Part shown: positions 37,988 through 54,017 of the stretch, in pieces
Layout: the number at the start of each line of letters is the position of its first letter
Numbering within the stretch: position 1 is the stretch's first letter
Position numbers and translations under genes: made by a program
From: a virus
IMG/VR virus record: IMGVR_UViG_3300020463_002440
Span: 1 to 64,000 of that record
Length of the DNA stretch: 64,000 bases
Strand: one strand, 5' to 3'
The notes under the pieces: generated by a model
Databases searched by the model: none
Told to the model about the DNA's origin: nothing
The model's input: only the letters and a program-made list of their open reading frames with translations

Positions 37988-38482
37988 ATGAAAATCGTTA
38001 TTCAAACTCAATACCGCGAAAACTATGCGGCTCACAACGAGGACTATGTCCATGGGGTTTCTGAACCTTATTGGAAGTTCAAAGGTGGCGACACGTATGT
38101 CGTAAGTTGTAGTTTGGCCGACGCCCAAGATTCTTTCTTTAGGCAAGCTGCTATGGATGCAGTTACTTTCTCTAATGAGGCTGCTGAGGAATATGTACTT
38201 GATTACAATATTCTTGATGACGCAGACTTTTCTATCAAAGACCACATTCAAGACTGGGAGACTCCTACAAACCTTTGGTTTGATGGTGAGAACTTCTGTG
38301 CTACCAAGATCACTCACAATGATGAGTTCGGTTATATGAGATCTGAAATTAAGGGTAAGACTGAGTCTTGGATTATCACTAAAGAGAACAATAGGTCTAA
38401 ATACGAATGTTCCTTTATTGTAGAAAGTGGTGATGAACTGTCTAGTTCTGAGCTTAAAGCATATTTAGCAGAGGCAGCGTAA
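37988..38482 (+). CDS. Early hypothetical protein
   Basis: TQYRENY..YWKFKGG; ends in -AA. Confidence 0.7.
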   Translation: MKIVIQTQYRENYAAHNEDYVHGVSEPYWKFKGGDTYVVSCSLADAQDSFFRQAAMDAVTFSNEAAEEYVLDYNILDDADFSIKDHIQDWETPTNLWFDGENFCATKITHNDEFGYMRSEIKGKTESWIITKENNRSKYECSFIVESGDELSSSELKAYLAEAA

Positions 38483-38483
38483 T

Positions 38484-38714
38484 ATGTATATTGAAAAAGA
38501 AACTAATAAAATTGCCGACACACTTTTAACAGTCGGTTTTGGAATAGTAGTGCTATTGCTTGTTTTTATAGCACTCGTTAACACGACATCAATACCTGAT
38601 GTTCACATATCACATTCAACAGGAGAATGCGTTAAAGTAATAAATTACGATGAAAGGTTTATCTACAACTGTAGTAACTACCCTTCAAAGTACAATCACA
38701 TATGGGTGAAATAA
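38484..38714 (+). CDS. Membrane-anchored hypothetical protein
   Basis: TM helix plus PDV..S..TGECV.V. Confidence 0.6.
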   Translation: MYIEKETNKIADTLLTVGFGIVVLLLVFIALVNTTSIPDVHISHSTGECVKVINYDERFIYNCSNYPSKYNHIWVK

Positions 38715-38908
38715 TGGAAATAATAACAGGAATCTTGGCTTGTATTATAATGGGCTTGTTTACTTACATCGGAGTTCACATTCAAGAAGAAAGAAGACAA
38801 GGTAATCATATACCTTTACTATGGGAAGAAGGCGGTTTCTTTAAAAGAACCAAAAGAAAAATATTTGACAAGTCAGATCTTAAATATAGAGATGGAGACA
38901 ATACATGA
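38714..38908 (+). CDS. Small membrane protein
   Basis: N-terminal TM helix. Confidence 0.55.
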   Translation: MEIITGILACIIMGLFTYIGVHIQEERRQGNHIPLLWEEGGFFKRTKRKIFDKSDLKYRDGDNT

Positions 38909-39114
38909 GACCTTTAATTGAATATTGGAATGATAGTATTGATTCTATCTCAAATTTAACAGATTGGAAATATGTTGGAAAAGTAGTTTTAGTTTTCCTA
39001 CCAGTTATTTTCTTTACTGTTTGGTATTATACATTAAAAGGTATTTGGCTTTCAACTGAGTACATCAATAAGCAAGGCGATAAATTTCTAAAATGGTTTA
39101 TACAAGATGATTGA
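38905..39114 (+). CDS. Small membrane protein
   Basis: Central TM helix. Confidence 0.55.
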   Translation: MRPLIEYWNDSIDSISNLTDWKYVGKVVLVFLPVIFFTVWYYTLKGIWLSTEYINKQGDKFLKWFIQDD

Positions 39115-39430
39115 AATATTAAAAGAAATTACTGAATGGGATTGCTATAAAGTTAATAATGGCTTTTATCATATTAACGGTGCAGGACAATTAGTTGCAC
39201 ATCAACCTGAAGGTGGTGAATTGAAAGTTTTTAAAACACCTATCAAAAACTTCTCTAAATCAAGACGTAAGTTTTTAAAGGTCGGAGATTATCAAGAAAA
39301 GAATAATCTCGGAGGTATTCCTGTGAAAGGCAGTAATGGGAATACATATTATATTGTGGACGGTAAATGTTCTTGTAAAGGATTTCAGTTCCGCGGAGAT
39401 TGTAAACACATAAGGAGCTTGGCAGCATGA
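39107..39430 (+). CDS. SWIM zinc-finger protein
   Basis: CSCKGFQFRGDCKH. Confidence 0.75.
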   Translation: MIEILKEITEWDCYKVNNGFYHINGAGQLVAHQPEGGELKVFKTPIKNFSKSRRKFLKVGDYQEKNNLGGIPVKGSNGNTYYIVDGKCSCKGFQFRGDCKHIRSLAA

Positions 39431-39750
39431 AAAGATTATTACAAAAAGGAACGATATTTATAGTAGACAGTTGGAGACTAGTAATGGATGCAAGGTATAA
39501 TCCATTAAGGTTTATACCAGATCCAAGTTTACAAATGTATTTTACATTAGTGCTATTTACTGTGTGGAGTGTATACTTCGGTTTCGTTGCGACATTTTAT
39601 ATGGGATGGTTAGGATATCAAACACTAACAAGTATTGCAGTACATATTGGAGTTATATTTCCAATTGCATTTACAAATGCGGTCTTTTTAGATGCTGAAA
39701 GAAACGGTTCAAAATGGTTACAAAATTGGAGAAAGAAAGATGAATTATGA
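39427..39750 (+). CDS. Membrane protein
   Basis: VMD..YNPL..IPD plus two TM helices. Confidence 0.65.
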   Translation: MKRLLQKGTIFIVDSWRLVMDARYNPLRFIPDPSLQMYFTLVLFTVWSVYFGFVATFYMGWLGYQTLTSIAVHIGVIFPIAFTNAVFLDAERNGSKWLQNWRKKDEL

Positions 39751-40129
39751 TTCTATAGAATTTGCTACAAGGGAAAACTTTATTAGGCAATACTTTAATG
39801 CATTTAGTAATAAAGACATTGATGCTTTAGAAAAAATGTTTGATAAAGATGTTACTCTAACAGATTGGGATATATCTGCTGAAGGTATTCTACCTGTCTG
39901 CAGAGCAAATGAACAAATCTTTAATTCTGTATTAAGGATTACTGCTATTCCTGAAGAGATTATTATTGACGGTAATAATGTTTGTGCATTGTTAACTATT
40001 GAAGTAATCACTGAAGGAACAGATCCAATAAACGATTTCGCAGAAAACCACGAAACACTTAAGGTCGTAGATTTAATAACGCTGACTAATGACTTTAAGA
40101 TTAAATCAATATCAGCGTTTAAACAATAA
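39740..40129 (+). CDS. SnoaL/NTF2-like protein
   Basis: YF.AF..KDI..L...F..DV.L.DW. Confidence 0.7.
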   Translation: MNYDSIEFATRENFIRQYFNAFSNKDIDALEKMFDKDVTLTDWDISAEGILPVCRANEQIFNSVLRITAIPEEIIIDGNNVCALLTIEVITEGTDPINDFAENHETLKVVDLITLTNDFKIKSISAFKQ

Positions 40130-40131
40130 GT

Positions 40132-40308
40132 ATGGACGAAAGAATCTTAAAAGAGATACGACTCGCAAGAAATTTAGCAAGAGAAATACAATGGGTTATA
40201 GATTCTGGTGGTGTAATGCCAGTTCAGATTCGTAACCAATTTGATCCTCTTAAAAAGTTTTATGATGAGTGTATAGCAGAAGAAGAAAGTATTTTTTACA
40301 GTATGTAA
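40132..40308 (+). CDS. Small hypothetical protein (not in ORF track)
   Basis: 58 aa MDERILKEIR. Confidence 0.5.
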   Translation: MDERILKEIRLARNLAREIQWVIDSGGVMPVQIRNQFDPLKKFYDECIAEEESIFYSM

Positions 40309-40400
40309 AATATATCATATTTTTATAAGTAGTTATTCATTCCGGTTATATATACTTGTATAGGCCAAGTGAAATTCTTGGTTTAGTAACGTGGATAAAT

Positions 40401-40496
40401 ATGAGCTTTGAAAAAATTAAAGATGGTGCAGAACTTGCAGTTCTTGTCATGATCTTCTGTCTATCAATCAGTGGTGTAAGTCCAAGTTTATTATAA
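40401..40496 (+). CDS. 31-aa single-TM peptide
   Basis: MSFEKIKDGAELAVLVMIFCLSISGVSPSLL; GGA RBS. Confidence 0.45.
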   Translation: MSFEKIKDGAELAVLVMIFCLSISGVSPSLL

Positions 40497-40516
40497 TAAA
40501 AAATCAGAGGTGGACC

Positions 40517-40624
40517 ATGAGGCAATTCGTAAGACGGGTTGTACTCAGCGAAATCTGTATCGAGTGTATGTTAATTCTTATGTTTATGGGAACAACAATT
40601 TACAGCATAAGTACGATTGTATAA
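40517..40624 (+). CDS. 35-aa single-TM peptide
   Basis: MRQFVRRVVLSEICIECMLILMFMGTTIYSISTIV; GAGGTGG RBS. Confidence 0.5.
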   Translation: MRQFVRRVVLSEICIECMLILMFMGTTIYSISTIV

Positions 40625-40646
40625 CCTGAGTGCAATCTAACCGGTT

Positions 40647-40672
40647 AAGGGAGTTGAAAGGCTCCCTTTTTT
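40647..40672 (+). terminator. Intrinsic terminator at a convergent junction
   Basis: AAGGGAGT-TGAAAG-GCTCCCTT + TTTT. Confidence 0.75.
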
Positions 40673-41000
40673 ATTGTGTATGTTTTTTAGCAATTGCTAT
40701 TGCTTCTTCTACTGTATACGGACTACTATGTGCCAATGGTGCTTTCGTTTCGGTTATGTTTGGAAAAACATCTGATAGTCTTGCATTGATTTCAAAGAAT
40801 GGTATTTGCTCAGGTGGTAATTCATCTTCACTCCATATTGCTTCAACAGGACATTCAGGAACACAAAGACCACAATCAATACATTCATCAGGATGTATTA
40901 CTAAAAAATCAGGTCCTTCATAAAAGCAGTCAACAGGACATACTTCCACACATTTAGTATCTTTACATCCGACACAAGGACTACCTACTACAAAAGCCAT
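40671..41000 (-). CDS. fdxA: 7Fe/8Fe ferredoxin (FdxA-like)
   Basis: [38 protein letters not shown]. Confidence 0.9.
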
Positions 41001-41006
41001 AACGAA

Positions 41007-41576
41007 TTATCTCTTAGGACATCTAATTTTTGCTTTTTTGGTTATCTTATAATTATTATATGCTACCAAGCCAGTCAAAGCAGCTGACATAAATTTCCAT
41101 TCATTCCACATTAGTTCACCATATTCTTCATCAGCATAAAACACGTTACTCACAGCCCAGATAACACTACCTTTTAAAGCAATCATCTCGCCAACTTCTG
41201 GGACTGGTGGTAATAAAGGATTTGCTTCTTCAATACATGAATACTTAACTCCTTCATAAGTCGTATATACATCTGCTATATGTGCTGTCCAAAATAAAAC
41301 ATTAACTAATAATTTATCCTTATTACTATGTTGCATAACAAATTCATTAAAACTTAATTCACCAAGTATTAACGTAGGTTCTTTATATTGAGGTAAGGTT
41401 TGAACTCTTCTAACTGTTTCGTCACTATAAGGAGCGTGATGTCCTAATCTGATAAGTTCTTTTGTTGCTTCAGAGAGTTCTGATAATAATGGGTCTTTTG
41501 GAACATATGCTTGTGCAGGAATTATAAAACATAATCCTAAAATAAGACTACTTAGTAGTCGCGATAAAAACACCAT
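41007..41576 (-). CDS. Hypothetical membrane/secreted protein
   Basis: Signal peptide; D..TT...C..EANP. Confidence 0.6.
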   Translation of the reverse strand: MVFLSRLLSSLILGLCFIIPAQAYVPKDPLLSELSEATKELIRLGHHAPYSDETVRRVQTLPQYKEPTLILGELSFNEFVMQHSNKDKLLVNVLFWTAHIADVYTTYEGVKYSCIEEANPLLPPVPEVGEMIALKGSVIWAVSNVFYADEEYGELMWNEWKFMSAALTGLVAYNNYKITKKAKIRCPKR

Positions 41577-43593
41577 TCCAATCCTTGGGAAGATCTTGCG
41601 TTTTCATGTATTCACAACGCTCAATCCACATTTTGTAATAACCGTCCATTTGTCCTTCAAAGCAATCCATGAGGTCATTACATATTTTAATCGCCTTATC
41701 AAAGTTTTGCTTTTGATAATTTGAATGCATTGCTTTGTGCATATCTACTGGTTTAATATATTTATCTTTATTTAGATCGAGAACAGTATATATTGTGATA
41801 CCTATTGTTTTTCCTTTCACAGCAAGATCATCAACCTTTAGAAAAAAGAATTCATTCGGATTACAACGATCTACAGTTTCTTCTCCGACTAATAATAGAC
41901 AACCATATTCTTTACACTTGGATTCTATTCTTGCGGCTGTTGATACGGCATCTCCAAGTATATCGTAGCTGTGACGAGATGTACTTCCCATTTCGCCAAC
42001 ATATCCAAGACCGCTATTAATACCTGCTCCCATACCAATCGGAGGTCGACCTTCTTTTGTAATTTTATTATTAAAGGATTCAACAGCTCTTAACATATTA
42101 ATACCAGTTTGTACTGCCGTCTTTGCATGATCTTTATCTTCCATAGGAGCATTATGTATATGCATACTTGCGTCTCCAATGTATTTGATAATCATTCCAT
42201 TTGCATCTAGAACAGGTTGTGTAATTGCATCCATATAACCATTCATTAATGTGGTCAGTCCTTTAACATCATCTCCGAAGCTTTCGCCCAGTGGAGTAAA
42301 TCCTCGAAGATCACTGAATACAATACTTACATCTTTTTTCATTCCGTCCTTGACAAGTGAGGGATTTTGTTGTAAAATAGTAACAACTTCTGGAGAACAA
42401 TACCCAGCGAATTGTTTCATGATTTCGCGCTTTTCTAAAAATGTTAAATAGTATTTGTTAAAGGAACTTTGGGCAAACACAACTAAGGAACTCAATGAAA
42501 TCAAAGATGCGTCAACGAAGATCAATGAACCGCTCCAAAGCCAGTAACTCACTCCGTATCCGGAAGAAACAAGACCAAGACTTATTAACACCCCAGGAGT
42601 TATGGGCAAGATATAGACCGCTCCAAGGATACCTAGACTCAATAAGACCAGAAGACCGAGCTCGAGTATTGGCTTCCAGTCGGGAATCTGTATTTCAACT
42701 CCTGAAAGAACGGTCTGAATTAGTTGGGCTTGAACTTCGTGGGGATACATTGCACCCGTTGGGGTTGAAACTGGATTAGAGACACCTTCAGCTGTTACTC
42801 CAAAGATAAGAACCTTTCCACTAGGTAAAGGATCAGTAATACTTATTTGTTCAAATTGATTCCAAAACGCAATTGGTAATTCAGCAAAACTATTTGTTGT
42901 GATAGGATCTTGACGACCCATACGAATCCATTCAACGCCGTTGGCGCCTACCTTCATTTGGTAACTGGGTTCTCCTGAATACACACGTAAGGTGTCAAGG
43001 GCGAGACTAGGGTATACGTTCCCGGCTGCTTCGACAACAAGTGGTGCTCTACGCACGACTCCGGTTGGTTCATCAGGTATAGCAACGGTAGCACCAACCC
43101 CGAAAGCGAAATTAGACAAATTGTCGATAGGATAAAGTAATCCAGGAAATTTGTAGAGCCATTTTTCATTTTGTTCTCCAAAGGTAGCGACACCTACAAA
43201 GGTACCTAAACCACCTGTTAATTGTTGTGATGGTGCTGAGGCCAACACCACTGCTTTTTGTTGCATTTCAAATGCAAGTAAATTGTCTTCTCCAAATCTA
43301 TCTTCTTCGGAGTATATTAAGTTAAGTACATAAAGGCTATCATTAGGGCCGTCACGTAAATAATCAGCAATGGAACCGCGAGGCCAAGGATACTGACCTT
43401 TGGCAGAGATTGCGGTTTCGTCGATGTTGACGAGGACCACGTCTTCAATAATTTCTTTTGTTTGATTTTGCTGTAACGCGTCATAATAAGCGTATTCTAT
43501 ACTTTGTATGAAACTAGGATTAACAATACTTAAAGTAGCAAAGCCTGCGATTGTAATAAGTACTGTCCACCACTGAGTTAGTGTTTTAAACAT
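41548..43593 (-). CDS. CHASE2-domain class III adenylate/guanylate cyclase
   Basis: VNIDE..GQYPWPR (CHASE2), three TM helices, FSDLRGFT, KYIGDA, YDILGDAV..AARIE. Confidence 0.92.
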   Translation of the reverse strand: MFKTLTQWWTVLITIAGFATLSIVNPSFIQSIEYAYYDALQQNQTKEIIEDVVLVNIDETAISAKGQYPWPRGSIADYLRDGPNDSLYVLNLIYSEEDRFGEDNLLAFEMQQKAVVLASAPSQQLTGGLGTFVGVATFGEQNEKWLYKFPGLLYPIDNLSNFAFGVGATVAIPDEPTGVVRRAPLVVEAAGNVYPSLALDTLRVYSGEPSYQMKVGANGVEWIRMGRQDPITTNSFAELPIAFWNQFEQISITDPLPSGKVLIFGVTAEGVSNPVSTPTGAMYPHEVQAQLIQTVLSGVEIQIPDWKPILELGLLVLLSLGILGAVYILPITPGVLISLGLVSSGYGVSYWLWSGSLIFVDASLISLSSLVVFAQSSFNKYYLTFLEKREIMKQFAGYCSPEVVTILQQNPSLVKDGMKKDVSIVFSDLRGFTPLGESFGDDVKGLTTLMNGYMDAITQPVLDANGMIIKYIGDASMHIHNAPMEDKDHAKTAVQTGINMLRAVESFNNKITKEGRPPIGMGAGINSGLGYVGEMGSTSRHSYDILGDAVSTAARIESKCKEYGCLLLVGEETVDRCNPNEFFFLKVDDLAVKGKTIGITIYTVLDLNKDKYIKPVDMHKAMHSNYQKQNFDKAIKICNDLMDCFEGQMDGYYKMWIERCEYMKTQDLPKDWNGVFIATTK

Positions 43594-44527
43594 GTTTACG
43601 ATATACTTTTACCGTATTAATTAATTGTCTTACGTGTTCAACTGGAGTTGTCTTATCAATTCCATGAGCCAAGTTAACAATATACGGCCTGTCTTTCATT
43701 TTATTGAGTACAGGTGTAATATCTTCTCCTTTAATTAATCGGCTTACTGAAATACCTCCTTGAAGTACTTCGCCATTAATTTGATCCACAGGTAAATCAT
43801 CGCTCATATTTGTTGCGTCAGGATTTACTTGTTCTATATAATCATTTATTTTTGTACCAACAAGTCTTGGAAAGGCAATAATACAAACATCAGGATAATG
43901 AGCTCTTATAACATCAACAATTTGCTGTGTTGGTTGAATTACATATTCATAAAAGTTTTCTTCTGATATGTCACAAGCATGACTATCAAATATTTGTATT
44001 GTATCACACCCTGCTTCAATTTGCATTGATAGGTGGTCAATAATATAAGGTACTAATTTTTGTACTACATCCAATCTTTGTTCTTCACACATATATTTAC
44101 ATATTGTGTATGGTGCTGCAGCAAATCCAATTAAAGATTTACTATCATCAAGCTCTTCTCTAACTTTTCGTATTGCTTCGTAAACTGGTTCGCACTTATC
44201 TTGGAATTCTTCTCGTGTTGTTTCCCAAAATGATTCGTTGTATGGACCTAGCTTTGGACCAGGAACATAATCAAGTTCTTGTCCTAAAGCGTAATTCACA
44301 ATTAATATATCTGAAAATATAATTGCACAATCCATATCAAACTCAAGAATAGGTTGCATCGTAATCTCAGCAGCCTTCCAAGGAGTAAGAGCCATATCTA
44401 AAAAGCCATCGGATTCTTTTTTCATTGCCATATATTCTGGCATATATCTTCCGGCTTGTCTCATTAACCAAACAGGATATAAATTAACTTCTTTATCCTG
44501 AATCGTTCTCTGTAATAATGTTTTCAT
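43586..44527 (-). CDS. hemE: Uroporphyrinogen decarboxylase
   Basis: PVWLMRQAGRYMPEY, AIIFSDIL, LIGFA.APYT, IQIFDS, NLAHGI. Confidence 0.9.
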   Translation of the reverse strand: MKTLLQRTIQDKEVNLYPVWLMRQAGRYMPEYMAMKKESDGFLDMALTPWKAAEITMQPILEFDMDCAIIFSDILIVNYALGQELDYVPGPKLGPYNESFWETTREEFQDKCEPVYEAIRKVREELDDSKSLIGFAAAPYTICKYMCEEQRLDVVQKLVPYIIDHLSMQIEAGCDTIQIFDSHACDISEENFYEYVIQPTQQIVDVIRAHYPDVCIIAFPRLVGTKINDYIEQVNPDATNMSDDLPVDQINGEVLQGGISVSRLIKGEDITPVLNKMKDRPYIVNLAHGIDKTTPVEHVRQLINTVKVYRKHV

Positions 44528-44532
44528 AATTT

Positions 44533-44844
44533 TTAACTTAATTTCTTTTGTATGTATTTCACCGCAGCATATATCGTTAAACCATATATTGCGAATATTG
44601 TTAAGGGAACTGCCATGTTGAGGATTACACTGATATCTAGGAATAGCAAATCTTTTGTAAAATCAATAATTGCTTCTGCGTCACCTTGTGCAGGTTCAAT
44701 ATTTCCTTCTATAGTATATTGCATATCTGCATCTGTAAGCATCAAGTGAAACTCATCTTCAGGAATACACATCATACCTTCAGGACAACCTTCTTCACCT
44801 GGGTATTTCGTTCCCACAGGATTTCCAAACATATCTAAATCCAT
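44533..44844 (-). CDS. Small membrane protein
   Basis: CPEGMMC N-terminal region, C-terminal TM helix. Confidence 0.6.
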   Translation of the reverse strand: MDLDMFGNPVGTKYPGEEGCPEGMMCIPEDEFHLMLTDADMQYTIEGNIEPAQGDAEAIIDFTKDLLFLDISVILNMAVPLTIFAIYGLTIYAAVKYIQKKLS

Positions 44845-44846
44845 AA

Positions 44847-45587
44847 TTATTCTTGAATCACCGATGTACTACAACCACCGACTGTCATACAATCAACTGA
44901 TATAGTATAAGACTGTGTACCGCTAGTACCAAATTGTATTAATGTTAAGTCTGTTCCATATAAACCATCAAGAGTTATATTTGCAGTGTGTGGTTGATTA
45001 GTTCCTTTCTGACGAACATACACATCGTTATAATCATTGTATATTGTTAAGTTTGTAGTTTTTGAAGCTTTGCCTTGTTGTTTTATTTGAACTTCGTTAT
45101 GGTCACCTGCTAAATGTAAATCAAAGTTATGTCCATCAGCTGCATTCCACTGATTGGTTTGTTGAACTGCTAATTGATTATAGTCACCGTACATAGTAAT
45201 ATCTATCTCATGACCACCACCTTCATCTCCATCGTCACTCCAATCTAAATTAGTATCAGAATTAAGAACGTCCCAAGAAACACCTTGTCCTAATTTCATT
45301 TGATTACCTGTACCACTTACTTCATCAAATCTTATTTTATTAGGAAGTGAAGTATTGCTTGTATTTACTTGTACTAAATACATATCTAAACTTGATGCTG
45401 TAATATATGAATTATTATCTAACATTAAAATTTGATTATCAAATCCAACTTGGTCAACACCTAATTGAAAAGTATCACCGCTCTGTTCAATATTGATTTC
45501 GTTATCTGCAAGTGCAACAGGTGCCAACATTAATACACCAAATAATATACCTGCTAAAAATATGTATGTTCTTTTTTCATTTGCCAT
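44847..45587 (-). CDS. Secreted curlin-repeat-like beta-solenoid protein
   Basis: Signal peptide; repeated N.I.I.Q.G..N units; C-terminal Cys pair. Confidence 0.7.
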   Translation of the reverse strand: MANEKRTYIFLAGILFGVLMLAPVALADNEINIEQSGDTFQLGVDQVGFDNQILMLDNNSYITASSLDMYLVQVNTSNTSLPNKIRFDEVSGTGNQMKLGQGVSWDVLNSDTNLDWSDDGDEGGGHEIDITMYGDYNQLAVQQTNQWNAADGHNFDLHLAGDHNEVQIKQQGKASKTTNLTIYNDYNDVYVRQKGTNQPHTANITLDGLYGTDLTLIQFGTSGTQSYTISVDCMTVGGCSTSVIQE

Positions 45588-45595
45588 AATATTAT

Positions 45596-46750
45596 TTATC
45601 CTCCTTGTCTAATCACAATTATTGAATCATTACCACCATTCAAATCTATAATCCCTTGATAACCATCTACTGATGTATCAACTCTAACTGATGCGTCTAC
45701 TGCAAAAGAAATATTTACTACTCCATTTACAGTTCTATAAAAAAATATTTTTCCGCTTTGTTCGTATATGTTATATTGACTGTCGTTATTAAATCCAAAA
45801 CTTGCTCCACGTAATTCAGCACCTAATGCTGTTCCGCTAATTGCACTATCATCAAGTGATGCGGTTGTTCTAACGAGAGCTTCGACTACATCTAATAAAT
45901 CTGTTAAAAAATCAACATCAAGATAATCAATATCAAGTTCTGAAAATTCTAATGCATCTTCATCGAGAGCATCATATTCTAATTCATTAAATTCTAAAAA
46001 ATCGAAATCAAGTAATCCTTGATCCATGTTTGCTTCGTCTTCGGCTGTTTCTTCAATTGCTTCTTTTACTTCAGGAGGCGGAGAAACAATAAACATATTA
46101 TCAATCATATTAGGTGTAATACCTTGCATTGTGATTTGTCTTGTAGGCGGGGTATCTAAACTGCTCACCATCGTTGCTGCATATGCTTCTGATAAAGTAA
46201 TTGTTCCACCATTGTTTGTTACATCGATAATACCTGAAGGATTACCGAACTCATCAGGTAAAAGTATTACGAGTGATCTACCTAACTCATCAATGGTTGC
46301 TGTAAAATCTGTTCCTCTTACAGCGATTTGTGCTGTTGGTGTTGATAGGTCAATATTTGCTTTATTAACCATTCCTAATCGACCAGATGCAAACCGCGCT
46401 GTGCCAACTGCCATGCGCATTGCCATTTTGGATTTACTTGGATCTGGATCGTAGTATATCTTGTCGATATATACTTTGGTGTGTTCTGTTAAAGATAACT
46501 GAGCTTCGTCTAAAAACTCAATCTTCATTCGGCCTTGGCCTGTTTCAGCCGTATCGTTTAATTCAATATTTGGAATAGAAGACGCGTCTAATATTTCGCC
46601 TTCTTCTCGAACAATTTGTCCGCTGCCAGTTTGTTCAATGATATCGCCAATTGGGCTCGCCATTGCTGTTCCGAAAAACAACATTGGCAAACCCAATAAT
46701 AGTCTAGCTGTCGTTAGCTGAATCTTTCTGATTAATTTGAATTGTAGCAT
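45596..46750 (-). CDS. FecR-domain protein
   Basis: D...T..G...I.F.D; TPTA.IAVRGTDF; acidic LD-rich linker; start uncertain. Confidence 0.8.
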   Translation of the reverse strand: MLQFKLIRKIQLTTARLLLGLPMLFFGTAMASPIGDIIEQTGSGQIVREEGEILDASSIPNIELNDTAETGQGRMKIEFLDEAQLSLTEHTKVYIDKIYYDPDPSKSKMAMRMAVGTARFASGRLGMVNKANIDLSTPTAQIAVRGTDFTATIDELGRSLVILLPDEFGNPSGIIDVTNNGGTITLSEAYAATMVSSLDTPPTRQITMQGITPNMIDNMFIVSPPPEVKEAIEETAEDEANMDQGLLDFDFLEFNELEYDALDEDALEFSELDIDYLDVDFLTDLLDVVEALVRTTASLDDSAISGTALGAELRGASFGFNNDSQYNIYEQSGKIFFYRTVNGVVNISFAVDASVRVDTSVDGYQGIIDLNGGNDSIIVIRQGG

Positions 46751-47435
46751 TTTCACTATCAACATCCAAAGTAATAATTCCATTACAAGTAGAAATGCCT
46801 TGTGGGCATGTTCCGCTCATTTGGTTAATATCAATATCTGCAGATGATCCGTTAAGAACTAAATTAATTTCATGTTCTCCACCATCTTTCTGTAAGGTAT
46901 TAATATTGTTTGATCCACCTGTGATGTCCATATTCCAAACTGCATCATCAACATCTATGTCAATATCAAAGATATTACTATCTCCAATTACAGTTAAGTC
47001 AAGATCTAATCTTTCTGCACTTGCGTTATACCCTTGGTCAAAGTCCATAGTATTTGAATCACCAGTAATATCAACATCATATGTTGAAGTATCTGCTGAA
47101 CCTACATATCCTACGTCCCAATCCCAAACGTTGCTGTCACCTGTCCAAAGTAAATTGGCAGTTGAGCTGTCGCCAACAAATTTTCCGAATAGTAAATTTT
47201 CGTTTCCTATTTGGTCAATATTGAAAGTTAAAGTTGTACCTGTGATAGGCATAGCACTTGAACCTGATGCAAAATTGTCTAAACCAATTTTGTTACCATA
47301 TCCATATTGGTCAATGTAAAGTGTTAAAGTATCACCTTGTTGGTCAATATTAATTTCATTATCGTCGGTAGCTTGCGCATTCGCATTGAAAGAAAAAACA
47401 CATAATAAAGATAGGCCTAATATTTTACGTATCAT
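46704..47435 (-). CDS. Secreted curlin-repeat-like beta-solenoid protein
   Basis: Signal peptide; DNEINIDQQG, IDQ.G..N, GDSN repeats; Cys pair. Confidence 0.7.
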   Translation of the reverse strand: MIRKILGLSLLCVFSFNANAQATDDNEINIDQQGDTLTLYIDQYGYGNKIGLDNFASGSSAMPITGTTLTFNIDQIGNENLLFGKFVGDSSTANLLWTGDSNVWDWDVGYVGSADTSTYDVDITGDSNTMDFDQGYNASAERLDLDLTVIGDSNIFDIDIDVDDAVWNMDITGGSNNINTLQKDGGEHEINLVLNGSSADIDINQMSGTCPQGISTCNGIITLDVDSENATIQINQKDSANDS

Positions 47436-48376
47436 TATTCTTCCTCTTTTAAGTTAATCGACCAGAAGCCACGTTCGTCGCCCTGGTACACCATTTCTAG
47501 TACGGCAGCTTCAATTGCTGTTCGTACTGCGTATGTCACTGATTCATTATTACCAATTCCGTCCTCGTATTCAATCAACTGAGTTCCCTGCTCGATAAAG
47601 CGGAAGACGTCTCCTCCTGAGCCATAGCTCAGTATTGATTTTTTCGTCTGAACATTCAATAATATTTCACCTGTTAAAACCGATACAGCTCGCACTGAAA
47701 CTGTTACGACATCTTGTCTATATTGTCGACTAAAACCTATGCCTAACGTTCTTGCGCCTCGCCCTCCTGTCTTTACATTACTATCATAACCAATGATGCC
47801 GCCCTCAATTATCATTCCCGCGAATAATAGAGGACCAACACCTTTTGTTTCTTCGCCCAGTTTCTTTGCCGCTTCATCACGACCTGTACGAATGATTTGA
47901 CGTTCTCTTACAAGAGCGTCAATTCCTTGTCTTTCTACTACTCTGAACCAGGTACCATTTCCTGCTGTCTTCAGAGCATCTATTAATAATTCTGTTCCAC
48001 CTTGTGTTACCGCCGTGGAAAAACTTTGTCCTGTGACAGAATCTTTTCTCTGTCCTGTCTTATCTAAAAATCCATATACTGCTACCACAGGTTTACTTGC
48101 TGCAGGCGGTAAATTTAATAACTCAATGTAAGATGGTAATCTAACAACTTGAGGCTGTTCGATACATATCTGTTTACTCTCAATATATTTACGAGTACCT
48201 GTATTAATCTTATCTATTAATAAACCGTCACCGTTTTCATCTTTTACTTTGCCAAACCCTTGCGAGTAATATCCTTGCCCGTATTCGCAATTTGCAGGTC
48301 CTTCAGACCATTGTGGCATTTGTGCACAGCTTGTTAAAAACGCAAGGCTAACCGCCGTCAGGATTCGAGTCACCAT
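47435..48376 (-). CDS. csgG: Curli secretion pore CsgG/HfaB-family lipoprotein
   Basis: Lipobox LTS-C; VAVY.F.DKTGQRK, FSTAVTQG, WF.VVER, ERQIIR, EGGIIGYD. Confidence 0.92.
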   Translation of the reverse strand: MVTRILTAVSLAFLTSCAQMPQWSEGPANCEYGQGYYSQGFGKVKDENGDGLLIDKINTGTRKYIESKQICIEQPQVVRLPSYIELLNLPPAASKPVVAVYGFLDKTGQRKDSVTGQSFSTAVTQGGTELLIDALKTAGNGTWFRVVERQGIDALVRERQIIRTGRDEAAKKLGEETKGVGPLLFAGMIIEGGIIGYDSNVKTGGRGARTLGIGFSRQYRQDVVTVSVRAVSVLTGEILLNVQTKKSILSYGSGGDVFRFIEQGTQLIEYEDGIGNNESVTYAVRTAIEAAVLEMVYQGDERGFWSINLKEEE

Positions 48377-48860
48377 CCGTTCCTCCACCAAAATTTCCAC
48401 TACCTATTGGTATCTCAATAATAGTAGTAGTCCCATTTTCGTCAATAATTGTCATTTTAATATATTCAGTTCCATCTGTGTTAGTTATAACTTCATATGT
48501 TACTGTTGATCCTTCTAATACGAAAGATCCAAACCTTACAGGATTATCGTTAGAGAACATATTATCTACTAACTGTTTTGCTAACTGAGCATAAATCCTT
48601 GACTCAAGGTTACGAATAAACTTTGATAATGTTGTATTATCAGCTTCTCGTTGTGCAGCTCTTTCAGCTGCTTCAAGAGCATCCTTTATTTGCTCCTTTC
48701 TTGAAAACTCTTGGTTCTCAATTGTTAAATAATGCGCTCCTGCGCCTACACCGCTGAACGATGGATTTTTAAATTTATGAACAATTGGCTCTGCACAGAC
48801 TTGTGCAGAAAAATAAACTCCAATTACAAGTATTCCTAAAAGTGTTCCATTAATCTTCAT
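48348..48860 (-). CDS. csgF: Curli assembly component CsgF
   Basis: Signal peptide then H.FKNPSFSG; F..NLESRIYAQL; adjacent to csgG. Confidence 0.82.
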   Translation of the reverse strand: MKINGTLLGILVIGVYFSAQVCAEPIVHKFKNPSFSGVGAGAHYLTIENQEFSRKEQIKDALEAAERAAQREADNTTLSKFIRNLESRIYAQLAKQLVDNMFSNDNPVRFGSFVLEGSTVTYEVITNTDGTEYIKMTIIDENGTTTIIEIPIGSGNFGGGTDGDSNPDGG

Positions 48861-49119
48861 TGTCTTTCTCACCTTTTTTCTTCAATTCTTCTATTTCTTT
48901 ATATTTCAGAACAACATCAACTTTTTGTTGTAAACGTATTAAGTCTTGATCTAACATCCTCATTCTGTCAATTAACTTTATAAGTGCCATGTGTTGCTTA
49001 TCAATTTCAGGTTGCAGTTTAGTATTCACAAACTGCCACACAAAATATACAAAATAACCAAGTCCTACTACCATAACAGCAGGAAAGCCATACTCATTAA
49101 CTAAGCTCGCAATATCCAT
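48850..49119 (-). CDS. Small TM + coiled-coil protein (YvrJ-like N-terminus)
   Basis: NEYGFPA TM helix; LIDR.RMLDQDLIRL. Confidence 0.65.
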   Translation of the reverse strand: MDIASLVNEYGFPAVMVVGLGYFVYFVWQFVNTKLQPEIDKQHMALIKLIDRMRMLDQDLIRLQQKVDVVLKYKEIEELKKKGEKDNED

Positions 49120-49123
49120 TATA

Positions 49124-49420
49124 TCAATCTCTTCTTACGTCTACTTTTCCATCTTCTATAAAATTTTCTGCTCGGGCTACTCTTTCAATATCTGGATTTA
49201 ATCCTAATGCACTACTCACAAGAAGATCAATCTTGATCATTTCATTAGACATCATAGATGCTCTATTTTCCAATGATTCTGCGAACATTGTTAACGTGCC
49301 AATACTATCAACGATTCCTTCAAAGATTTGTTTTATAATTACAAAAATAAAGAATCCCATTGTAAGGGCTCCGGCAATAGGCAATCCTACGTCAGATATA
49401 AGTTGAAAAATTTCTTCCAT
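49124..49420 (-). CDS. Small TM + coiled-coil protein, likely paralog of the next gene
   Basis: ISDVGLPI TM helix; LENR...M.NE..KID; DGKVD.RRD. Confidence 0.65.
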   Translation of the reverse strand: MEEIFQLISDVGLPIAGALTMGFFIFVIIKQIFEGIVDSIGTLTMFAESLENRASMMSNEMIKIDLLVSSALGLNPDIERVARAENFIEDGKVDVRRD

Positions 49421-49457
49421 AGTAATCCTAGTATTGAAAGGTAAAACCTCTCAATGT

Positions 49458-49465
49458 TATTTATA
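49458..49465 (-). promoter_or_regulatory. T4-type late promoter of the csg-fecR-cyclase operon
   Basis: TATAAATA on the minus strand, 37 nt upstream of the first ATG. Confidence 0.7.
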
Positions 49466-49649
49466 CATTTTAGATACTATATAGGTAACAAATTGTCTTC
49501 TAATAGGCTCCATATTCTCCTTCTAGTCCTCTTGTAATGTATGGCAATACAATCCAATTAGTAAAAATAACCACTTTTAGAGGACATTTATTTTGTTATA
49601 TACATGATGATTAATATAACAAAAAGTTCTAAAAAGATGAAAAAAGTTG

Positions 49650-49678
49650 TTGACATTCTTTATGAAATAGATTAGAAT
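49650..49678 (+). promoter_or_regulatory. Early promoter (palindromic-spacer class)
   Basis: TTGACA-TTCTTTATGAA-ATAGAT-TAGAAT. Confidence 0.75.
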
Positions 49679-49710
49679 ATACATTCAACAATTGAAAAAG
49701 GAATCAAATA

Positions 49711-49944
49711 ATGTCTACTGAATTGAGAACTGTTCCAACAACAGATATTCAACAAACGCGTTTCTTTGGTGGAAAAGACCGAGGAACATGTATTCAATTA
49801 ACGCCACCATGGCAATCACAAGGTCACATTCAGCTAACTCGTAAACAGGCTGCTGAGTTGGCTGCAGAATTAACGCTGTTCGCAAATGGTGAAGAAGTTG
49901 CCGAGCATCTACTACCTCTATTCCAAGTTGTCAAAAATAAATGA
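49711..49944 (+). CDS. Early hypothetical protein
   Basis: TRFFGGKDRG.C.QLT. Confidence 0.65.
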   Translation: MSTELRTVPTTDIQQTRFFGGKDRGTCIQLTPPWQSQGHIQLTRKQAAELAAELTLFANGEEVAEHLLPLFQVVKNK

Positions 49945-49953
49945 AAAAAACTA

Positions 49954-49982
49954 TTGACATCATAAAGAAACTATGGTATAAT
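49954..49982 (+). promoter_or_regulatory. Early promoter
   Basis: TTGACA-TCATAAAGAAA-CTATGG-TATAAT. Confidence 0.8.
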
Positions 49983-50016
49983 GGTTGTATAAATTAAATT
50001 AATCAGGAAATAAATT

Positions 50017-50295
50017 ATGAAATTATCAAAAAGTGAAATGACTAAATTAGAAACTTTAATCAATAAAGCTGAAGGTACTGATGTATCGGTTATCATTCAG
50101 ATGATTAAGGCAAAGCAAAGAAACGATCAGTTTAAAGCTGCTAAGTCTTTTGAAGTTGGTCAAACTGTTTCCTTTACTACAAGGATCGGCGAAAAGATCG
50201 TTGGTGAAGTTATGAAAGTCAATACCAAGAACATCAAGGTAAGGACTCCTCAAGGTAACTGGAATGTTACTGCTTCATTACTGTCAGCTGCATAG
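50017..50295 (+). CDS. Early protein with an SH3/KOW-like C-terminus
   Basis: F.VGQ.V.F...G.V.KVN.K...V...W.V..SLL; ends in -AA. Confidence 0.65.
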   Translation: MKLSKSEMTKLETLINKAEGTDVSVIIQMIKAKQRNDQFKAAKSFEVGQTVSFTTRIGEKIVGEVMKVNTKNIKVRTPQGNWNVTASLLSAA

Positions 50296-50315
50296 GACGT
50301 TCTGTCCGACCGAAG

Positions 50316-50341
50316 AGCCTATCTATCTTGGTAGGCTTTTC
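50316..50341 (+). terminator. Possible intrinsic terminator
   Basis: AGCCTATC-TATCTT-GGTAGGCT + TTT. Confidence 0.5.
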
Positions 50342-50372
50342 ACTACCCAACTATTAACATAGAGGAAAGTAA

Positions 50373-50576
50373 ATGAGTAATGTAATTAAATTTCCAATGG
50401 ATCGTATTCGATTAAGTCCAAATGCAGAAGACTTTTTTGCTGATAGAATTTGCGACCAAGCAGATCAACTTGAAGAGCAACTGAACGATGTCTTGAGTCA
50501 AGCAATTGCTATTGAAGAACAGACAGCACGTCTTCTTAAAATGATGGAAGCAATAGATGAGGATGATCATGTTTGA
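50373..50576 (+). CDS. Hypothetical protein
   Basis: MSNVIKFP, 67 aa. Confidence 0.6.
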   Translation: MSNVIKFPMDRIRLSPNAEDFFADRICDQADQLEEQLNDVLSQAIAIEEQTARLLKMMEAIDEDDHV

Positions 50577-50724
50577 TTGGAATCACATTGTGAAAATGAC
50601 TATAATATTTTCAGTGTTTTTGTTTTTGATGTTGGCAATGCAATCTAGCATAAACCATTGGACACCAGAAAAAATGTATTTTGATGCGCCAAACCAGTCC
50701 TTTGAGACAGATAAGATTGCATAG
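50569..50724 (+). CDS. Small membrane protein (not in ORF track)
   Basis: 51 aa, GAGGA RBS, one TM helix. Confidence 0.5.
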   Translation: MFDWNHIVKMTIIFSVFLFLMLAMQSSINHWTPEKMYFDAPNQSFETDKIA

Positions 50725-50733
50725 CATAAACTA

Positions 50734-50762
50734 TTGACATTTTCTTTTAACTTTGATATAAT
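50734..50762 (+). promoter_or_regulatory. Early promoter
   Basis: AAACTATTGACA-N17-TATAAT. Confidence 0.75.
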
Positions 50763-50769
50763 ATACATT

Positions 50770-51327
50770 ATGAATATTTTTATTTTAGACAACGATCCAA
50801 TAAAAGCAGCTCAATCTCAGTGCGACAAGCATGTCGTAAAAATGATTATTGAGTCTGCTCAGATGTTATCGACCGTTCATCGTATGTTGGACGGCAAAAT
50901 GGAACGCAGGCCTTCAAAGTCTGGTTCTATGTTAAAGTATTATTACCTTGAAGACAGTCGAGAAGATACACTCTACAAAGCCTGTCATCATAATCATCCG
51001 TCCACAGTTTGGACGAGAGAATCCAAAGCCAACTATGATTGGCACTACAAACACTTTGTTGCGTTATGTGATGAATACACTTATCGTTATGGTAAGATCC
51101 ATATGACAGATACTAAATTAAGACAAGCATTAAAATATTTTCCAACTAATATACCTGATATAGGACCAACTAAATTTAAGTTAGCAATGAGTTCTAATCC
51201 TGAGTGTATATTTGAGGATGCAGTTAAATCGTATCGTGCTTTTTATCATACCAAAGAAGAAAGATTTAAATTGGTGTGGAGTAAAAGACCGATTCCTGAC
51301 TGGTGGCAAGGTCGGAGATTAGCTTAG
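50770..51327 (+). CDS. Pyrimidine-dimer DNA glycosylase-like protein
   Basis: MNIF.LD..P..AA...CDKHVVKM..E.AQMLST; H.NHP..W; EYT.RYGK.H. Confidence 0.8.
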   Translation: MNIFILDNDPIKAAQSQCDKHVVKMIIESAQMLSTVHRMLDGKMERRPSKSGSMLKYYYLEDSREDTLYKACHHNHPSTVWTRESKANYDWHYKHFVALCDEYTYRYGKIHMTDTKLRQALKYFPTNIPDIGPTKFKLAMSSNPECIFEDAVKSYRAFYHTKEERFKLVWSKRPIPDWWQGRRLA

Positions 51328-51359
51328 TTATAATTATGGTAATTAAATAGGAGTGTAAT

Positions 51360-51587
51360 ATGCAAAAGAAACTAGGAGAGCAGCTATTAAGCGATGCCAA
51401 AAGAAGAATCATTTCAAAAGATGATTTACTTGAAGCTTGTTTAAAAACTTTAACCGATGATCAGATATACGAAATAGCAATTGCTAATGATTTTGTAATG
51501 ACTGAAAACGAAGATGCAAATATTGATATGGAGAATTCTCCGCAACAACGAATCATTGATGCGGTCTTGGCACGACATGGAGATTAA
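51360..51587 (+). CDS. Hypothetical protein
   Basis: 75 aa, AGGAG RBS. Confidence 0.6.
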   Translation: MQKKLGEQLLSDAKRRIISKDDLLEACLKTLTDDQIYEIAIANDFVMTENEDANIDMENSPQQRIIDAVLARHGD

Positions 51588-51798
51588 CTTAAGTATGGAT
51601 CTTTGGATGTATTGGGTAACTGCAATTGTATTTACAGCTCTTGGTTACGCATTTGCACGAGATAAAAAAGCTTCTTTCGAAGAATCAAGACGAATTACAC
51701 AAGAAACTATTGATACTCTAATTGAAATGGGGTTTATAAAAACTCGTCTTGATGACAATAATGAAATTGAACTAGTCAAATACGAAGAGGAAATTTAA
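51577..51798 (+). CDS. Small membrane protein
   Basis: TM helix plus TID.L...G.IK. Confidence 0.6.
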   Translation: MEINLSMDLWMYWVTAIVFTALGYAFARDKKASFEESRRITQETIDTLIEMGFIKTRLDDNNEIELVKYEEEI

Positions 51799-51999
51799 AT
51801 GGAAATACCAGCAGTAAGTTCTACAGGACCTACTCCAACTTATCGGTTTCAACAGAATAATGTTGAATATGATACTCGTACTGTTAAAGTAACAACAAAA
51901 GTAATGAACGATTATCAACAAGAAACAATTTACACATACGATAAGTATGGCCACTTACAGTCAACAGTGATTCACAAATCGGATATTGCTTTAATATGA
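51799..51999 (+). CDS. Hypothetical protein
   Basis: 66 aa, YTYDKYG. Confidence 0.55.
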   Translation: MEIPAVSSTGPTPTYRFQQNNVEYDTRTVKVTTKVMNDYQQETIYTYDKYGHLQSTVIHKSDIALI

Positions 52000-52187
52000 T
52001 ATCAGATTTTACACTTTTTAATGTTTCTATTATTAATCCATCCACAATGGAAAAAATTGACCAAGGTGAGATGAGATATAAACACGCAAAAGATTTTCTT
52101 AATAAAATGGATAAGAAAGGAATACCTGTAATTGTTGAAGCAATCAACGATTCTGATGTAGCAGATTTCATATTATCAAATAATTAA
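51996..52187 (+). CDS. Hypothetical protein
   Basis: 63 aa, ATGA overlap. Confidence 0.55.
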   Translation: MISDFTLFNVSIINPSTMEKIDQGEMRYKHAKDFLNKMDKKGIPVIVEAINDSDVADFILSNN

Positions 52188-52206
52188 ACTTTTTTCATAA
52201 AAACTA

Positions 52207-52235
52207 TTGACATTCATTATGAACTATAGTATAAT
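52207..52235 (+). promoter_or_regulatory. Early promoter driving the large ncRNA
   Basis: TTGACA-TTCATTATGAA-CTATAG-TATAAT. Confidence 0.8.
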
Positions 52236-52240
52236 AGACG

Positions 52241-52922
52241 TATATTGAGGGAAACACCCCCGACTCGCAAGAGAAATGGTAAAATGCAATTACCAAAGCG
52301 ACGGAGATATCTCGAGGTCATAAAAGTTGTTCTTATCAAACAAAGGCCGAGAAAAAACAGGTGGACAAACCCGACTGGCAGCTGAAGCTGTTGAGTATAT
52401 CCAATCGTAACAGATATATTCGGACAGAGTAATGAGAGGGCCAATACTGGAAAGTATGTAATTATACGGGTACAGAACAAATCAATAGAGACTGAGGCGA
52501 GCCCGAGTTTGAAGAAACGCTCGAAACTAAAGTGGATTAAATTCCCGCAGTCCGAAAAGAGATAGGTTTAGCTTGCAAGCTAAACGACACAAGACGGCAG
52601 TCTAGGATCTTCTCTTTTTTACTTGAGAGTATGCTTAAGTGTTACCCAAGAAACTAGAGTTAACGAAGTACGATGTAAGTCCGAGGCCAGCCAGTCGACC
52701 TAATAGTTTTACTTGGAATGCTACGATTAACAATTCAGCATTATTTAACGAATTACGTTAACACAGCATTCCATTTTCTAGGTGGTTAGAAACCGCAGCT
52801 TAGTCGGCTGTTCCTTTAGAAAGGATCCAATAACAAATGACGATTGTGAGGCATGAGTTCTACACCGAGGCGGTTCTTGTCATACCTTTGATGGGTGTAT
52901 ATGGAAGAACCGCCGTTTTTTT
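52241..52922 (+). ncRNA. Large structured ncRNA (ROOL/GOLLD-like class, tentative)
   Basis: ~680 nt between promoter and terminator with no plus-strand ORF in the track; many hairpins and long-range complementary segments. Confidence 0.75.
52869..52922 (+). terminator. Intrinsic terminator / 3' stem of the ncRNA
   Basis: GGCGGTTCTT...AAGAACCGCC + GTTTTTTT. Confidence 0.75.
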
Positions 52923-52936
52923 ATTAAGGACATAAT

Positions 52937-53779
52937 ATGATTCCATTAATTGGAACAAGAAAATCAAAACTTGCTCTTGCATATACTAACAAAGCAATAA
53001 AACGTTTAGATATTTCACTTACAACTGTCCTCATTGATTCAGAAGCAGATCTTAAACCTGATGTTACTATTGAAGAATTAGGTAATAAAGGAGTCTTTTC
53101 TAAAGAGGCTGAAACCTCTCTAATTAATAATCATATTGATATTGCATGTCATGCATACAAAGATCTTACAAGAGATAACGATCACCTTCTAGAAATATCC
53201 TGCGTACTACCAAGAGCTGACTTTAGAGATTGTTTAATTGGTAATAATATAAATCCAAGAACAATAGGTACAAGCTCTCCAAGAAGATTATTTCAATTAC
53301 AAGAATTATATCCAAATGCACAGATAGTTCCTATTCGTGGTAACATAGATACTCGAATACAAAAACAAGAGAACGGTGAATATGATGCAATTGTTTTAGC
53401 AAAAGCTGGTCTTGATTCTTTAAACCTTACTCACAAAGCAAGTAGAATATTTGGAACTGCAGATATGTTGCCTGCACCAGGACAAGGAGTTATTGCTTTA
53501 CAGACAAGAATACCAAATAATGATAGAGATCGCGATATTACAGGAATGTTATGGGCAAGAAATCATATTGACACTTGGTATACAGTAATGGCTGAAAAAG
53601 CAATGCTTAAAGAAATAAATGGAGACTGCCATACTCCAATTGGTGTATTATCATATGTTGAAAATAATACATTACACATGGTTGCGAAACACTTTGAAAC
53701 AGATAAGCTAAGTTTGAATAAAGGTCCTATTGAAGAATATAATGAAATAGGTTCGCAGCTCGGCAAATCTTTAATATGA
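52937..53779 (+). CDS. hemC: Hydroxymethylbilane synthase (porphobilinogen deaminase)
   Basis: IGTRKSKLA, KGVFSKE, H.YKD, IGTSSPRR, RGNIDTR, LPAPGQG, GDCHTPIG (cofactor Cys). Confidence 0.9.
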   Translation: MIPLIGTRKSKLALAYTNKAIKRLDISLTTVLIDSEADLKPDVTIEELGNKGVFSKEAETSLINNHIDIACHAYKDLTRDNDHLLEISCVLPRADFRDCLIGNNINPRTIGTSSPRRLFQLQELYPNAQIVPIRGNIDTRIQKQENGEYDAIVLAKAGLDSLNLTHKASRIFGTADMLPAPGQGVIALQTRIPNNDRDRDITGMLWARNHIDTWYTVMAEKAMLKEINGDCHTPIGVLSYVENNTLHMVAKHFETDKLSLNKGPIEEYNEIGSQLGKSLI

Positions 53780-53994: not shown

Positions 53995-54017
53995 CTGAAC
54001 TTTTTCTCATAAAACTA

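Follow-up and report, generated by a model that had tools for sequence, protein, structure and literature searches.

Curli genes have been described before in marine phages. Zaragoza-Solas et al. (2020) reported a curli cluster in pelagimyophages (PMC7029224), and Buchholz et al. (2022) modelled the CsgGF of phage Melnitz and proposed a role in lysis timing (PMC9004378). Wittmers et al. (2022) described the whole block, made up of 'HK', CsgF, CsgG, CsgA/B, FecR, CsgA/B and an adenylate cyclase, in both podoviruses and myoviruses that infect SAR11, and inferred an alphaproteobacterial origin (PMC9599517). According to that study, FecR and the cyclase do not occur in bacterial curli operons, podophage versions always have FecR but carry the cyclase and the second curlin less often and in some cases not at all, metatranscriptomes show the block to be expressed, and it makes up about 0.1% of assembled viral proteins (PMC9599517). 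Here we describe such a block in a 64,000-nt stretch of viral DNA (IMG/VR record IMGVR_UViG_3300020463_002440, positions 1 to 64,000; hereafter the window), where it occupies positions 40671-49420 of the minus strand. The whole phage record is 156 kb long and is estimated to be 73% complete. Gene order and protein similarity identify the feature as an intact version of the pelagiphage curli (type VIII secretion) block reported in those studies, carried by an uncultured T4-type phage resembling HTVC008M and Melnitz.

Few accessory gene sets of ocean phages are as abundant as this block, and it gives SAR11-type hosts an envelope machine which these hosts themselves lack. If it does build fibres or sense the outside of the cell, it would influence how the sea's most numerous bacteria aggregate, export carbon, become superinfected and time their lysis. 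A sequence-only reading of the window had presented the block as a candidate trans-envelope sensing system; the system is not new, having been published in 2022 with FecR and the cyclase already presented as its presumed regulators (PMC9599517). The question of its role has likewise been raised in the literature, and the present copy adds comparative detail, not a new phenomenon. What is new is the CHASE2 sensor on the cyclase, a bacterial precedent that combines FecR, CHASE2 and an exporter, the cargo genes, and a variant catalytic site. Neither CHASE2, nor the late-promoter motif, nor the bacterial FecR-CHASE2 pairing is mentioned in PMC9599517, PMC7029224 or PMC9004378.

The region 40671-49420 contains twelve open reading frames (ORFs), and every junction between them is an overlap or a gap of at most 8 nt. 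The tight minus-strand packing claimed by the sequence-only reading was confirmed, and its domain calls (CsgF, CsgG, FecR, HemE, CHASE2 cyclase and ferredoxin) were all reproduced by profile searches. Searched as DNA, the locus had no near match among 50,697 phage records, and relatives were found at the protein level only. Protein searches picked out two named phages, Methylophilales phage Melnitz and Pelagibacter phage HTVC008M (NC_020484); both share the genes and their order with the present copy, at protein identities of 27-51%. We also collected 12 IMG/VR contigs anchored on the cyclase and 80 anchored on CsgG, and ran profiles of the phage proteins over all of them. The gene order that defines the pelagiphage viral type VIII secretion block, with one or two small membrane genes ahead of csgF and with the second curlin and the cyclase as optional members (PMC9599517), was found in the window, in Melnitz, in HTVC008M and in these 92 IMG/VR loci. 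In full, the order small membrane protein 1, small membrane protein 2, CsgF, CsgG, curlin-like protein 1, FecR, curlin-like protein 2 and cyclase was unvarying in Melnitz, HTVC008M and the 12 + 80 contigs, as far as each contig reaches. The cyclase occupied the same place in all 48 CsgG-anchored contigs that still held a high-scoring cyclase ORF, and a 189-aa membrane protein followed it in most relatives. Thus, a synteny survey, which could have shown that the genes do not co-occur across phages, found the order kept in 80/80 CsgG-anchored viral contigs.

The remaining genes of the operon were distributed differently. The small protein with a C-terminal transmembrane (TM) helix was present in 17/80 CsgG-anchored contigs. 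HemE was found in 2/80 CsgG-anchored and 5/12 cyclase-anchored contigs, and in neither Melnitz nor HTVC008M. The ferredoxin occurred at this position in 0/92 related viral loci, that is, only in this phage. Because these three genes are occasional or unique among the relatives, we regard them as cargo inserted into an eight-gene core and carried on the same predicted transcript; they also set this copy apart from the published viral block. The earlier description of a twelve-gene system is therefore reduced to a conserved unit of eight.

Conservation was uneven within the core. The median identity to relatives was 57-69% for CsgF, CsgG, curlin-like protein 1 and FecR, 41% for the cyclase and 37% for curlin-like protein 2 (range 25-79%), whose identity was uncoupled from that of the neighbouring genes. 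One contig (L143), for example, matched curlin-like protein 2 at 79% and curlin-like protein 1 at 57%. The 189-aa protein is fast-evolving, with a median identity of 33% (28-42% among relatives). The high variability of curlin-like protein 2, the cyclase and the 189-aa protein suggests recombination or diversifying selection.

We then compared the regulatory half of the block with bacterial genomes. Full-length homologs of the cyclase (26-31% identity) were found in 80 bacterial loci, most of them alphaproteobacterial and some from SAR86. A FecR-domain gene lay within 10 kb of the cyclase homolog in 27/80 of these loci, often immediately upstream in the same orientation. The CHASE2 cyclase was accompanied by CsgG, CsgF or curlin-like genes in 0/80. 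Conversely, a close CsgG (E 1e-68 to 1e-86) was found in 7/401 alphaproteobacterial genomes, with csgF upstream as in the phage, and FecR or a cyclase stood beside csgFG in 0/7. When a profile built from phage FecR proteins only was run against four genomes, its genome-wide best match was the cyclase neighbour in three and its second best match in the fourth. On these counts, FecR and the CHASE2 cyclase are a real, inherited bacterial pair, separate from curli. Because the pair was never found with CsgG and the alphaproteobacterial curli loci lacked the pair, the phage block is a fusion of two modules: it joins a curli channel and its subunits with a FecR-CHASE2 pair, both apparently alphaproteobacterial and not found joined in the bacteria examined.

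The bacterial FecR partners fell into three groups. The first comprised proteins of 320-440 aa, transcribed after a TPR protein and a Slam-like outer-membrane barrel and divergent from the cyclase. There were 8 Slam-like barrel loci in four phyla, 6 of them with FecR. The recurrent triad of TPR plus Slam-like (SlipAM/DUF2860) barrel, FecR and divergent CHASE2 cyclase was seen in Alphaproteobacteria and Elusimicrobiota (L053, L062, L066, L072, L074 and L083), and a literature search found no paper combining DUF560 and FecR. The second group consisted of giant proteins with cadherin-like, Big_9, LamG or RTX repeats. The third was an RTX-FecR protein with its own ABC/HlyD exporter, encoded in a 31%-GC marine alphaproteobacterial single-cell genome. 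In this genome (AG-337-E20), the locus L046:8267-20997 also held an HlyD protein with a cyclic nucleotide (cNMP)-binding domain, the CHASE2 cyclase, a small cNMP-binding protein, and DUF1538 with P-II; RTX-FecR and its exporter lay on the other strand. The arrangement suggests that a secretion system is connected here to a CHASE2 cyclase.

Related arrangements have been reported in bacteria. Burkholderia carries a LysM-FecR and CHASE2 kinase operon (PMC5192318), and in S. meliloti a FecR gene (smc02177) lies beside cyaD1 (PMC5498481). In S. meliloti, a protein signal reaches the CHASE2 cyclases by way of NsrA, a protein of the outer membrane (PMC7529298). The phage block resembles these systems in that the genes for an exported FecR-fold protein and a CHASE2 sensor are neighbours and an outer-membrane component is involved. 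In contrast, the bacterial pairs come with a Slam-like barrel or a type I exporter and their FecR is often a giant adhesin, whereas the phage has a curli channel as exporter and a FecR protein of 384 aa. The link between FecR and the CHASE2 cyclase drawn by the sequence-only reading is supported by the bacterial pairs and by the S. meliloti precedent for signalling from the outer membrane to CHASE2.

The phage cyclase (41548-43593) has the architecture of CHASE2 class III adenylate cyclases of the CyaD1 type. It consists of a TM segment, a periplasmic CHASE2 domain (PF05226, E 8e-29, residues 18-319), further TM helices, a cytoplasmic catalytic domain (PF00211, Guanylate_cyc, E 8e-18, residues 419-596) and a C-terminal tail of about 85 aa; the TM segments lie at residues 11-29, 313-331 and 356-374. 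The catalytic domain matched cyclases in PDB (e.g., CyaB 3r5g, E 2e-19). Residues D428, K470, D474 and R555 were kept, and D544 and S551 were unusual. Compared with the full class III catalytic set, in which the second substrate residue can be Asp, Thr or Ser, the one departure is Ser551 in place of Asn. The metal-binding Asp pair, the substrate Lys and the Arg were conserved in 46/46 complete viral and 80/80 bacterial cyclases. The common type, which combines Ser/Thr as the second substrate residue with the canonical Asn, was seen in 43/46 complete CsgG-anchored viral cyclases, in HTVC008M and in all 80 bacterial relatives. The Asp544 and Ser551 type was restricted to the window, its close relatives, Melnitz and one further contig (L014), and this copy therefore belongs to a catalytic minority among the published-type blocks. 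Because the paired change is conserved at 49% overall identity, the enzyme is under selection. It should make cyclic AMP (cAMP), and the Asp544/Ser551 enzyme may differ from the common type in rate or product.

In the FecR-fold protein (45596-46750, 384 aa; PF04773, E 9e-9), a signal peptide precedes the FecR beta-domain (residues 30-210), which is followed by a disordered acidic linker and, at the C-terminus, a second, small beta domain. Its ORF opens at 46783, and the true start is most likely 46750. The AlphaFold2 model was confident at residues 30-210 and matched the periplasmic domain of PupR (6ovk_R, E 2e-4); the protein also matched the Lsa33 adhesin model (E 1.5e-5). More than 7,700 FecR relatives were present in the protein collection. 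Word-indexed protein searches with FecR and curlin-like protein 1 were filled by close marine relatives and reached no bacterial homolog. The fold is that of the periplasmic FecR domain of the FecR/PupR anti-sigma factors. Unlike FecIRA, however, the phage protein has neither an anti-sigma domain nor a TM helix and carries a cleavable signal peptide instead, and neither an extracytoplasmic function (ECF) sigma factor (Sigma70_r2) nor the STN domain of a TonB-dependent transducer was found in the 156-kb record. FecIRA-type signalling is therefore not indicated. We also considered the C-terminal beta domain as a curlin repeat that docks on the fibre; this was ruled out by hhalign (probability <1% against both curlin-like families).

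In the secretion half, CsgG (47435-48376; PF03783, E 1.5e-53) aligned with E. coli CsgG 4uv2 over the whole mature domain (residues 78-312, E 1.5e-47), and the Phe of the constriction loop was kept. Its ORF opens at 48400; the most likely true start is 48376, which gives a signal peptide ended by the lipobox LTSC. In this clade, CsgG has an extra N-terminal stretch with two Cys between the lipobox and the conserved domain, and the linker is shorter in Melnitz and HTVC008M. The CsgF homolog (48348-48872; signal peptide; PF10614, E 1e-14) was not recovered from PDB by phmmer with the single sequence; a profile of phage and alphaproteobacterial CsgF was needed, which matched E. coli CsgF in the CsgG-CsgF complex 6l7a (6l7a_J, E 9e-11). 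The alignment takes in the N-terminal FxNPxFxG segment, the part that enters and plugs the CsgG barrel. These alignments show that CsgG and CsgF keep the parts predicted to form the double-constriction channel.

The two curlin-like proteins are paralogs (31% identity, E 6e-9). Curlin-like protein 1 (46704-47435, 243 aa) is acidic, with a signal peptide and a C-terminal Cys pair, and is the conserved paralog. Curlin-like protein 2 (44847-45587, 246 aa) is hypervariable and mosaic among relatives. The curlin signal of protein 1 was below threshold (Curlin_rpt E 8.6e-4; CsgA model E 1.2e-4; CsgB model E 2.5e-3). Its AlphaFold2 model was an all-beta solenoid (pLDDT 75), for which Foldseek found nothing in PDB below E 0.15. 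The exhaustive aligner VIA gave SufD (Z 17.2) and Pontibacter CsgA 8c50 (Z 16.2) among many generic beta-helices; the CsgA match had 21% identity, the highest in the list. With hhalign, the curlin-like alignment gave only a short N-terminal match to single bacterial curlins (E 4e-4 and 9e-3). In the seven alphaproteobacterial csgFG loci, the phage curlin profiles matched one ORF in four, and each such ORF was a genuine Curlin_rpt protein. We conclude with moderate confidence that the two proteins are diverged curlins. That they might instead be virion parts, which would have spoken against export through CsgG, was ruled out by the Sec signal peptides on both; a match to the Gp34 tail fibre (E 0.008) was under the cut-off.

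The secretion half thus resembles bacterial curli systems (CsgBAC/CsgDEFG and the alphaproteobacterial csgF-csgG-curlin loci) in its CsgG lipoprotein channel, its CsgF with a barrel-plugging N-terminus and its adjoining secreted repeat proteins. It differs in that the subunits are about 245 aa long with sub-threshold curlin repeats, in that CsgE and CsgC were not found, and in that FecR and the cyclase are embedded in the block, as they are in none of the seven bacterial curli loci.

The operon is led by two small paralogs, small membrane protein 1 (49124-49420, 98 aa; phrog_18771, E 4e-23), with an N-terminal TM helix (residues 11-29) and a helical tail, and small membrane protein 2 (48850-49119, 89 aa; phrog_18771, E 4e-26), with one N-terminal TM helix. 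Neither had a Pfam match or an ATPase or kinase domain. No His was conserved in 79 homologs of protein 1, and one His was conserved in 72% of the homologs of protein 2. The 'histidine kinase' label given to the two genes in PMC9599517 did not hold up, there being no kinase domain in either and no conserved His in protein 1. An ESM Atlas search with protein 1 returned only viral clusters without names. Sec signal peptides with AxA-type cleavage sites were found on CsgF, both curlin-like proteins, FecR and the 189-aa protein. With the lipoprotein signal of CsgG, the membrane anchors of the small proteins and the polytopic cyclase, these predicted signals place all core products in the envelope and show that the block is one that works there.

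Upstream of the block, the T4-type late-promoter motif TATAAATA (49458-49465, minus strand) precedes the first ATG by 38 nt. The motif is not more frequent than expected by chance in the AT-rich window (12 copies versus 9.1 expected), but its placement is non-random: 10/12 copies lie 25-65 nt upstream of a start on the same strand. At the position leading the block, the exact motif was conserved in 51/75 related contigs, and 18 further contigs of the 75 had a near-variant such as CATAAATA. A sigma-70 promoter scan found fewer sites than in shuffled sequences. There is good motif-level evidence for T4-type late transcription of the block. Of the single late promoter proposed by the sequence-only reading, the motif and its site stand, and the word late is read from the motif.

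We favour the reading that a late-expressed curli channel exports curlin fibres and that FecR and the CHASE2 cyclase form a sensor pair making cAMP, and assign it a probability of roughly 0.55. Late in infection, CsgG-CsgF would form an outer-membrane channel through which the two curlin-like proteins would be exported to build fibres on the cell surface. Together with the CHASE2 cyclase, the exported FecR-fold protein would act as a sensor pair, the two having been acquired together from Alphaproteobacteria. There, the pair appears to sit by a dedicated exporter, either a Slam-like barrel or a system of type I, with FecR itself exported or adhesin-like, and in the phage the curli channel would take the place of that exporter. 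The state or location of FecR (retained, exported or ligand-bound) would set the activity of the cyclase. The resulting cAMP would act on host receptors, because no cNMP-binding domain was found encoded in the phage record. The trans-envelope sensing idea, in which the state of the fibre would be relayed via FecR to CHASE2, is plausible.

Several observations weigh against this reading. The late timing is derived from the motif. The curlin repeat signal is below the Pfam cut-off, and the fold match is generic for beta-helices. The sequence-only reading had listed CsgE, CsgC and CsgD as absent; CsgE and CsgC (PF10627 and PF10610) had no match in the 156-kb record, and CsgD was not searched for. 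Cultures infected with Melnitz showed no clumping (PMC9004378). The cyclase of this clade has Ser551 in place of the ribose-orienting (transition-state) Asn that is kept in 80/80 bacterial relatives, and the phage record supplies no cNMP-binding domain of its own to receive the signal. Finally, some podophages lack both the cyclase and the second curlin (PMC9599517), and coupling between FecR and the cyclase is therefore not obligatory.

A different assignment makes FecR an accessory of the channel (a periplasmic adaptor, gate or chaperone) that replaces CsgE/CsgC, with the cyclase as a separate add-on without a direct link. The FecR gene lies between both curlin genes, FecR is universal in podophage versions and the cyclase is not (PMC9599517), neither CsgE nor CsgC was found, and the long acidic disordered linker is as expected of a binding or adaptor protein. 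However, the bacterial FecR homologs closest to that of the phage adjoin homologous CHASE2 cyclases and not curli genes, and the C-terminus of FecR has no similarity to the curlin-like proteins. We consider this assignment unlikely.

Somewhat less probable still is the proposal of Buchholz et al. (2022), in which CsgG-CsgF is a gated envelope pore that helps to trigger or time lysis and any fibres are incidental. The late-promoter motif, the lack of a detected CsgE gate and the absence of clumping in Melnitz cultures (PMC9004378) all agree with it, as do the two N-terminally anchored small paralogs of holin/antiholin size that lead the operon. However, holins work at the inner membrane, and CsgG is a lipoprotein of the outer one; every copy retains a full-length CsgF and a pair of exported curlin-like paralogs, and FecR and the cyclase are left unexplained.

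The genes might also be functionally unlinked accessory genes whose synteny results from one ancestral acquisition and transfer as a block. The operon does accept unrelated cargo (HemE, ferredoxin and the small TM protein), and recombination affects curlin-like protein 2, the cyclase and the membrane protein downstream of it separately from the other genes. Such an explanation is improbable in view of an order that does not vary over CsgG identities of 48%-88% and two phage families (PMC9599517), the envelope location of all products, and the catalytic residues (metal Asp pair, Lys and Arg) kept in all 46 complete viral cyclases. Least probable by far is uptake of iron or cofactors through an ungated CsgG pore, with FecR sensing ferric citrate as in FecIRA: it is suggested in PMC9599517 and draws on the FecR family name and the lack of a detected CsgE gate, but the cleavable signal peptide in place of an anti-sigma domain and TM helix, the lack of ECF sigma or STN/TonB-transducer domains in the phage record and the poor fit of late expression to nutrient supply all oppose it.

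A broader proposal can also be made. An exporter, an exported FecR-fold protein and a CHASE2 receptor could constitute a general, as yet unnamed class of secretion-coupled envelope sensor in which the exporter is interchangeable (Slam-like barrel, type I system or phage curli channel). The phage version would respond to the export of fibres or to a cue from outside the cell, for instance nearby cells or superinfection by another phage, and turn it into late cAMP for lysis timing or exclusion. This generalization is speculative, and we would bet against it.

The other genes of the operon, all on the minus strand, are as follows. The cargo protein with a C-terminal TM helix (44533-44844, 103 aa) is small and acidic, and profile searches with Pfam, PHROG and other models found no family for it. 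HemE (43586-44527, 313 aa) is a uroporphyrinogen decarboxylase-like protein (PF01208, E 8e-66) that scored 240 bits with TIGR01464, under the cut-off of 303. The 189-aa exported or membrane protein (41007-41576) had a weak DUF5658 match (E 2e-4). The ferredoxin (40671-41000) is of the 7Fe FdxA type (NF045490, E 1e-38), with Fer4 and DUF3470 domains.

The genes flanking the block are on the plus strand, and the GC and AT skews flip across it. A GC-rich hairpin (40647-40668) lies directly 3' of the ferredoxin stop, where the plus-strand genes converge on the operon, and has a T-run on the plus strand only. An Rfam scan of 38000-54000 found no family. Downstream of the block, a small basic ORF of 59 aa with a TTG start (40346-40525, minus strand) had weak matches (E 1e-6 to 3e-8) at the same relative position in several related contigs, and may be a real gene. 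Among the flanking plus-strand genes (50734-51327 and 39692-40129) are one for a SnoaL-like protein and one with a weak match, right at the cut-off, to pyrimidine-dimer glycosylase (Pyr_excise).

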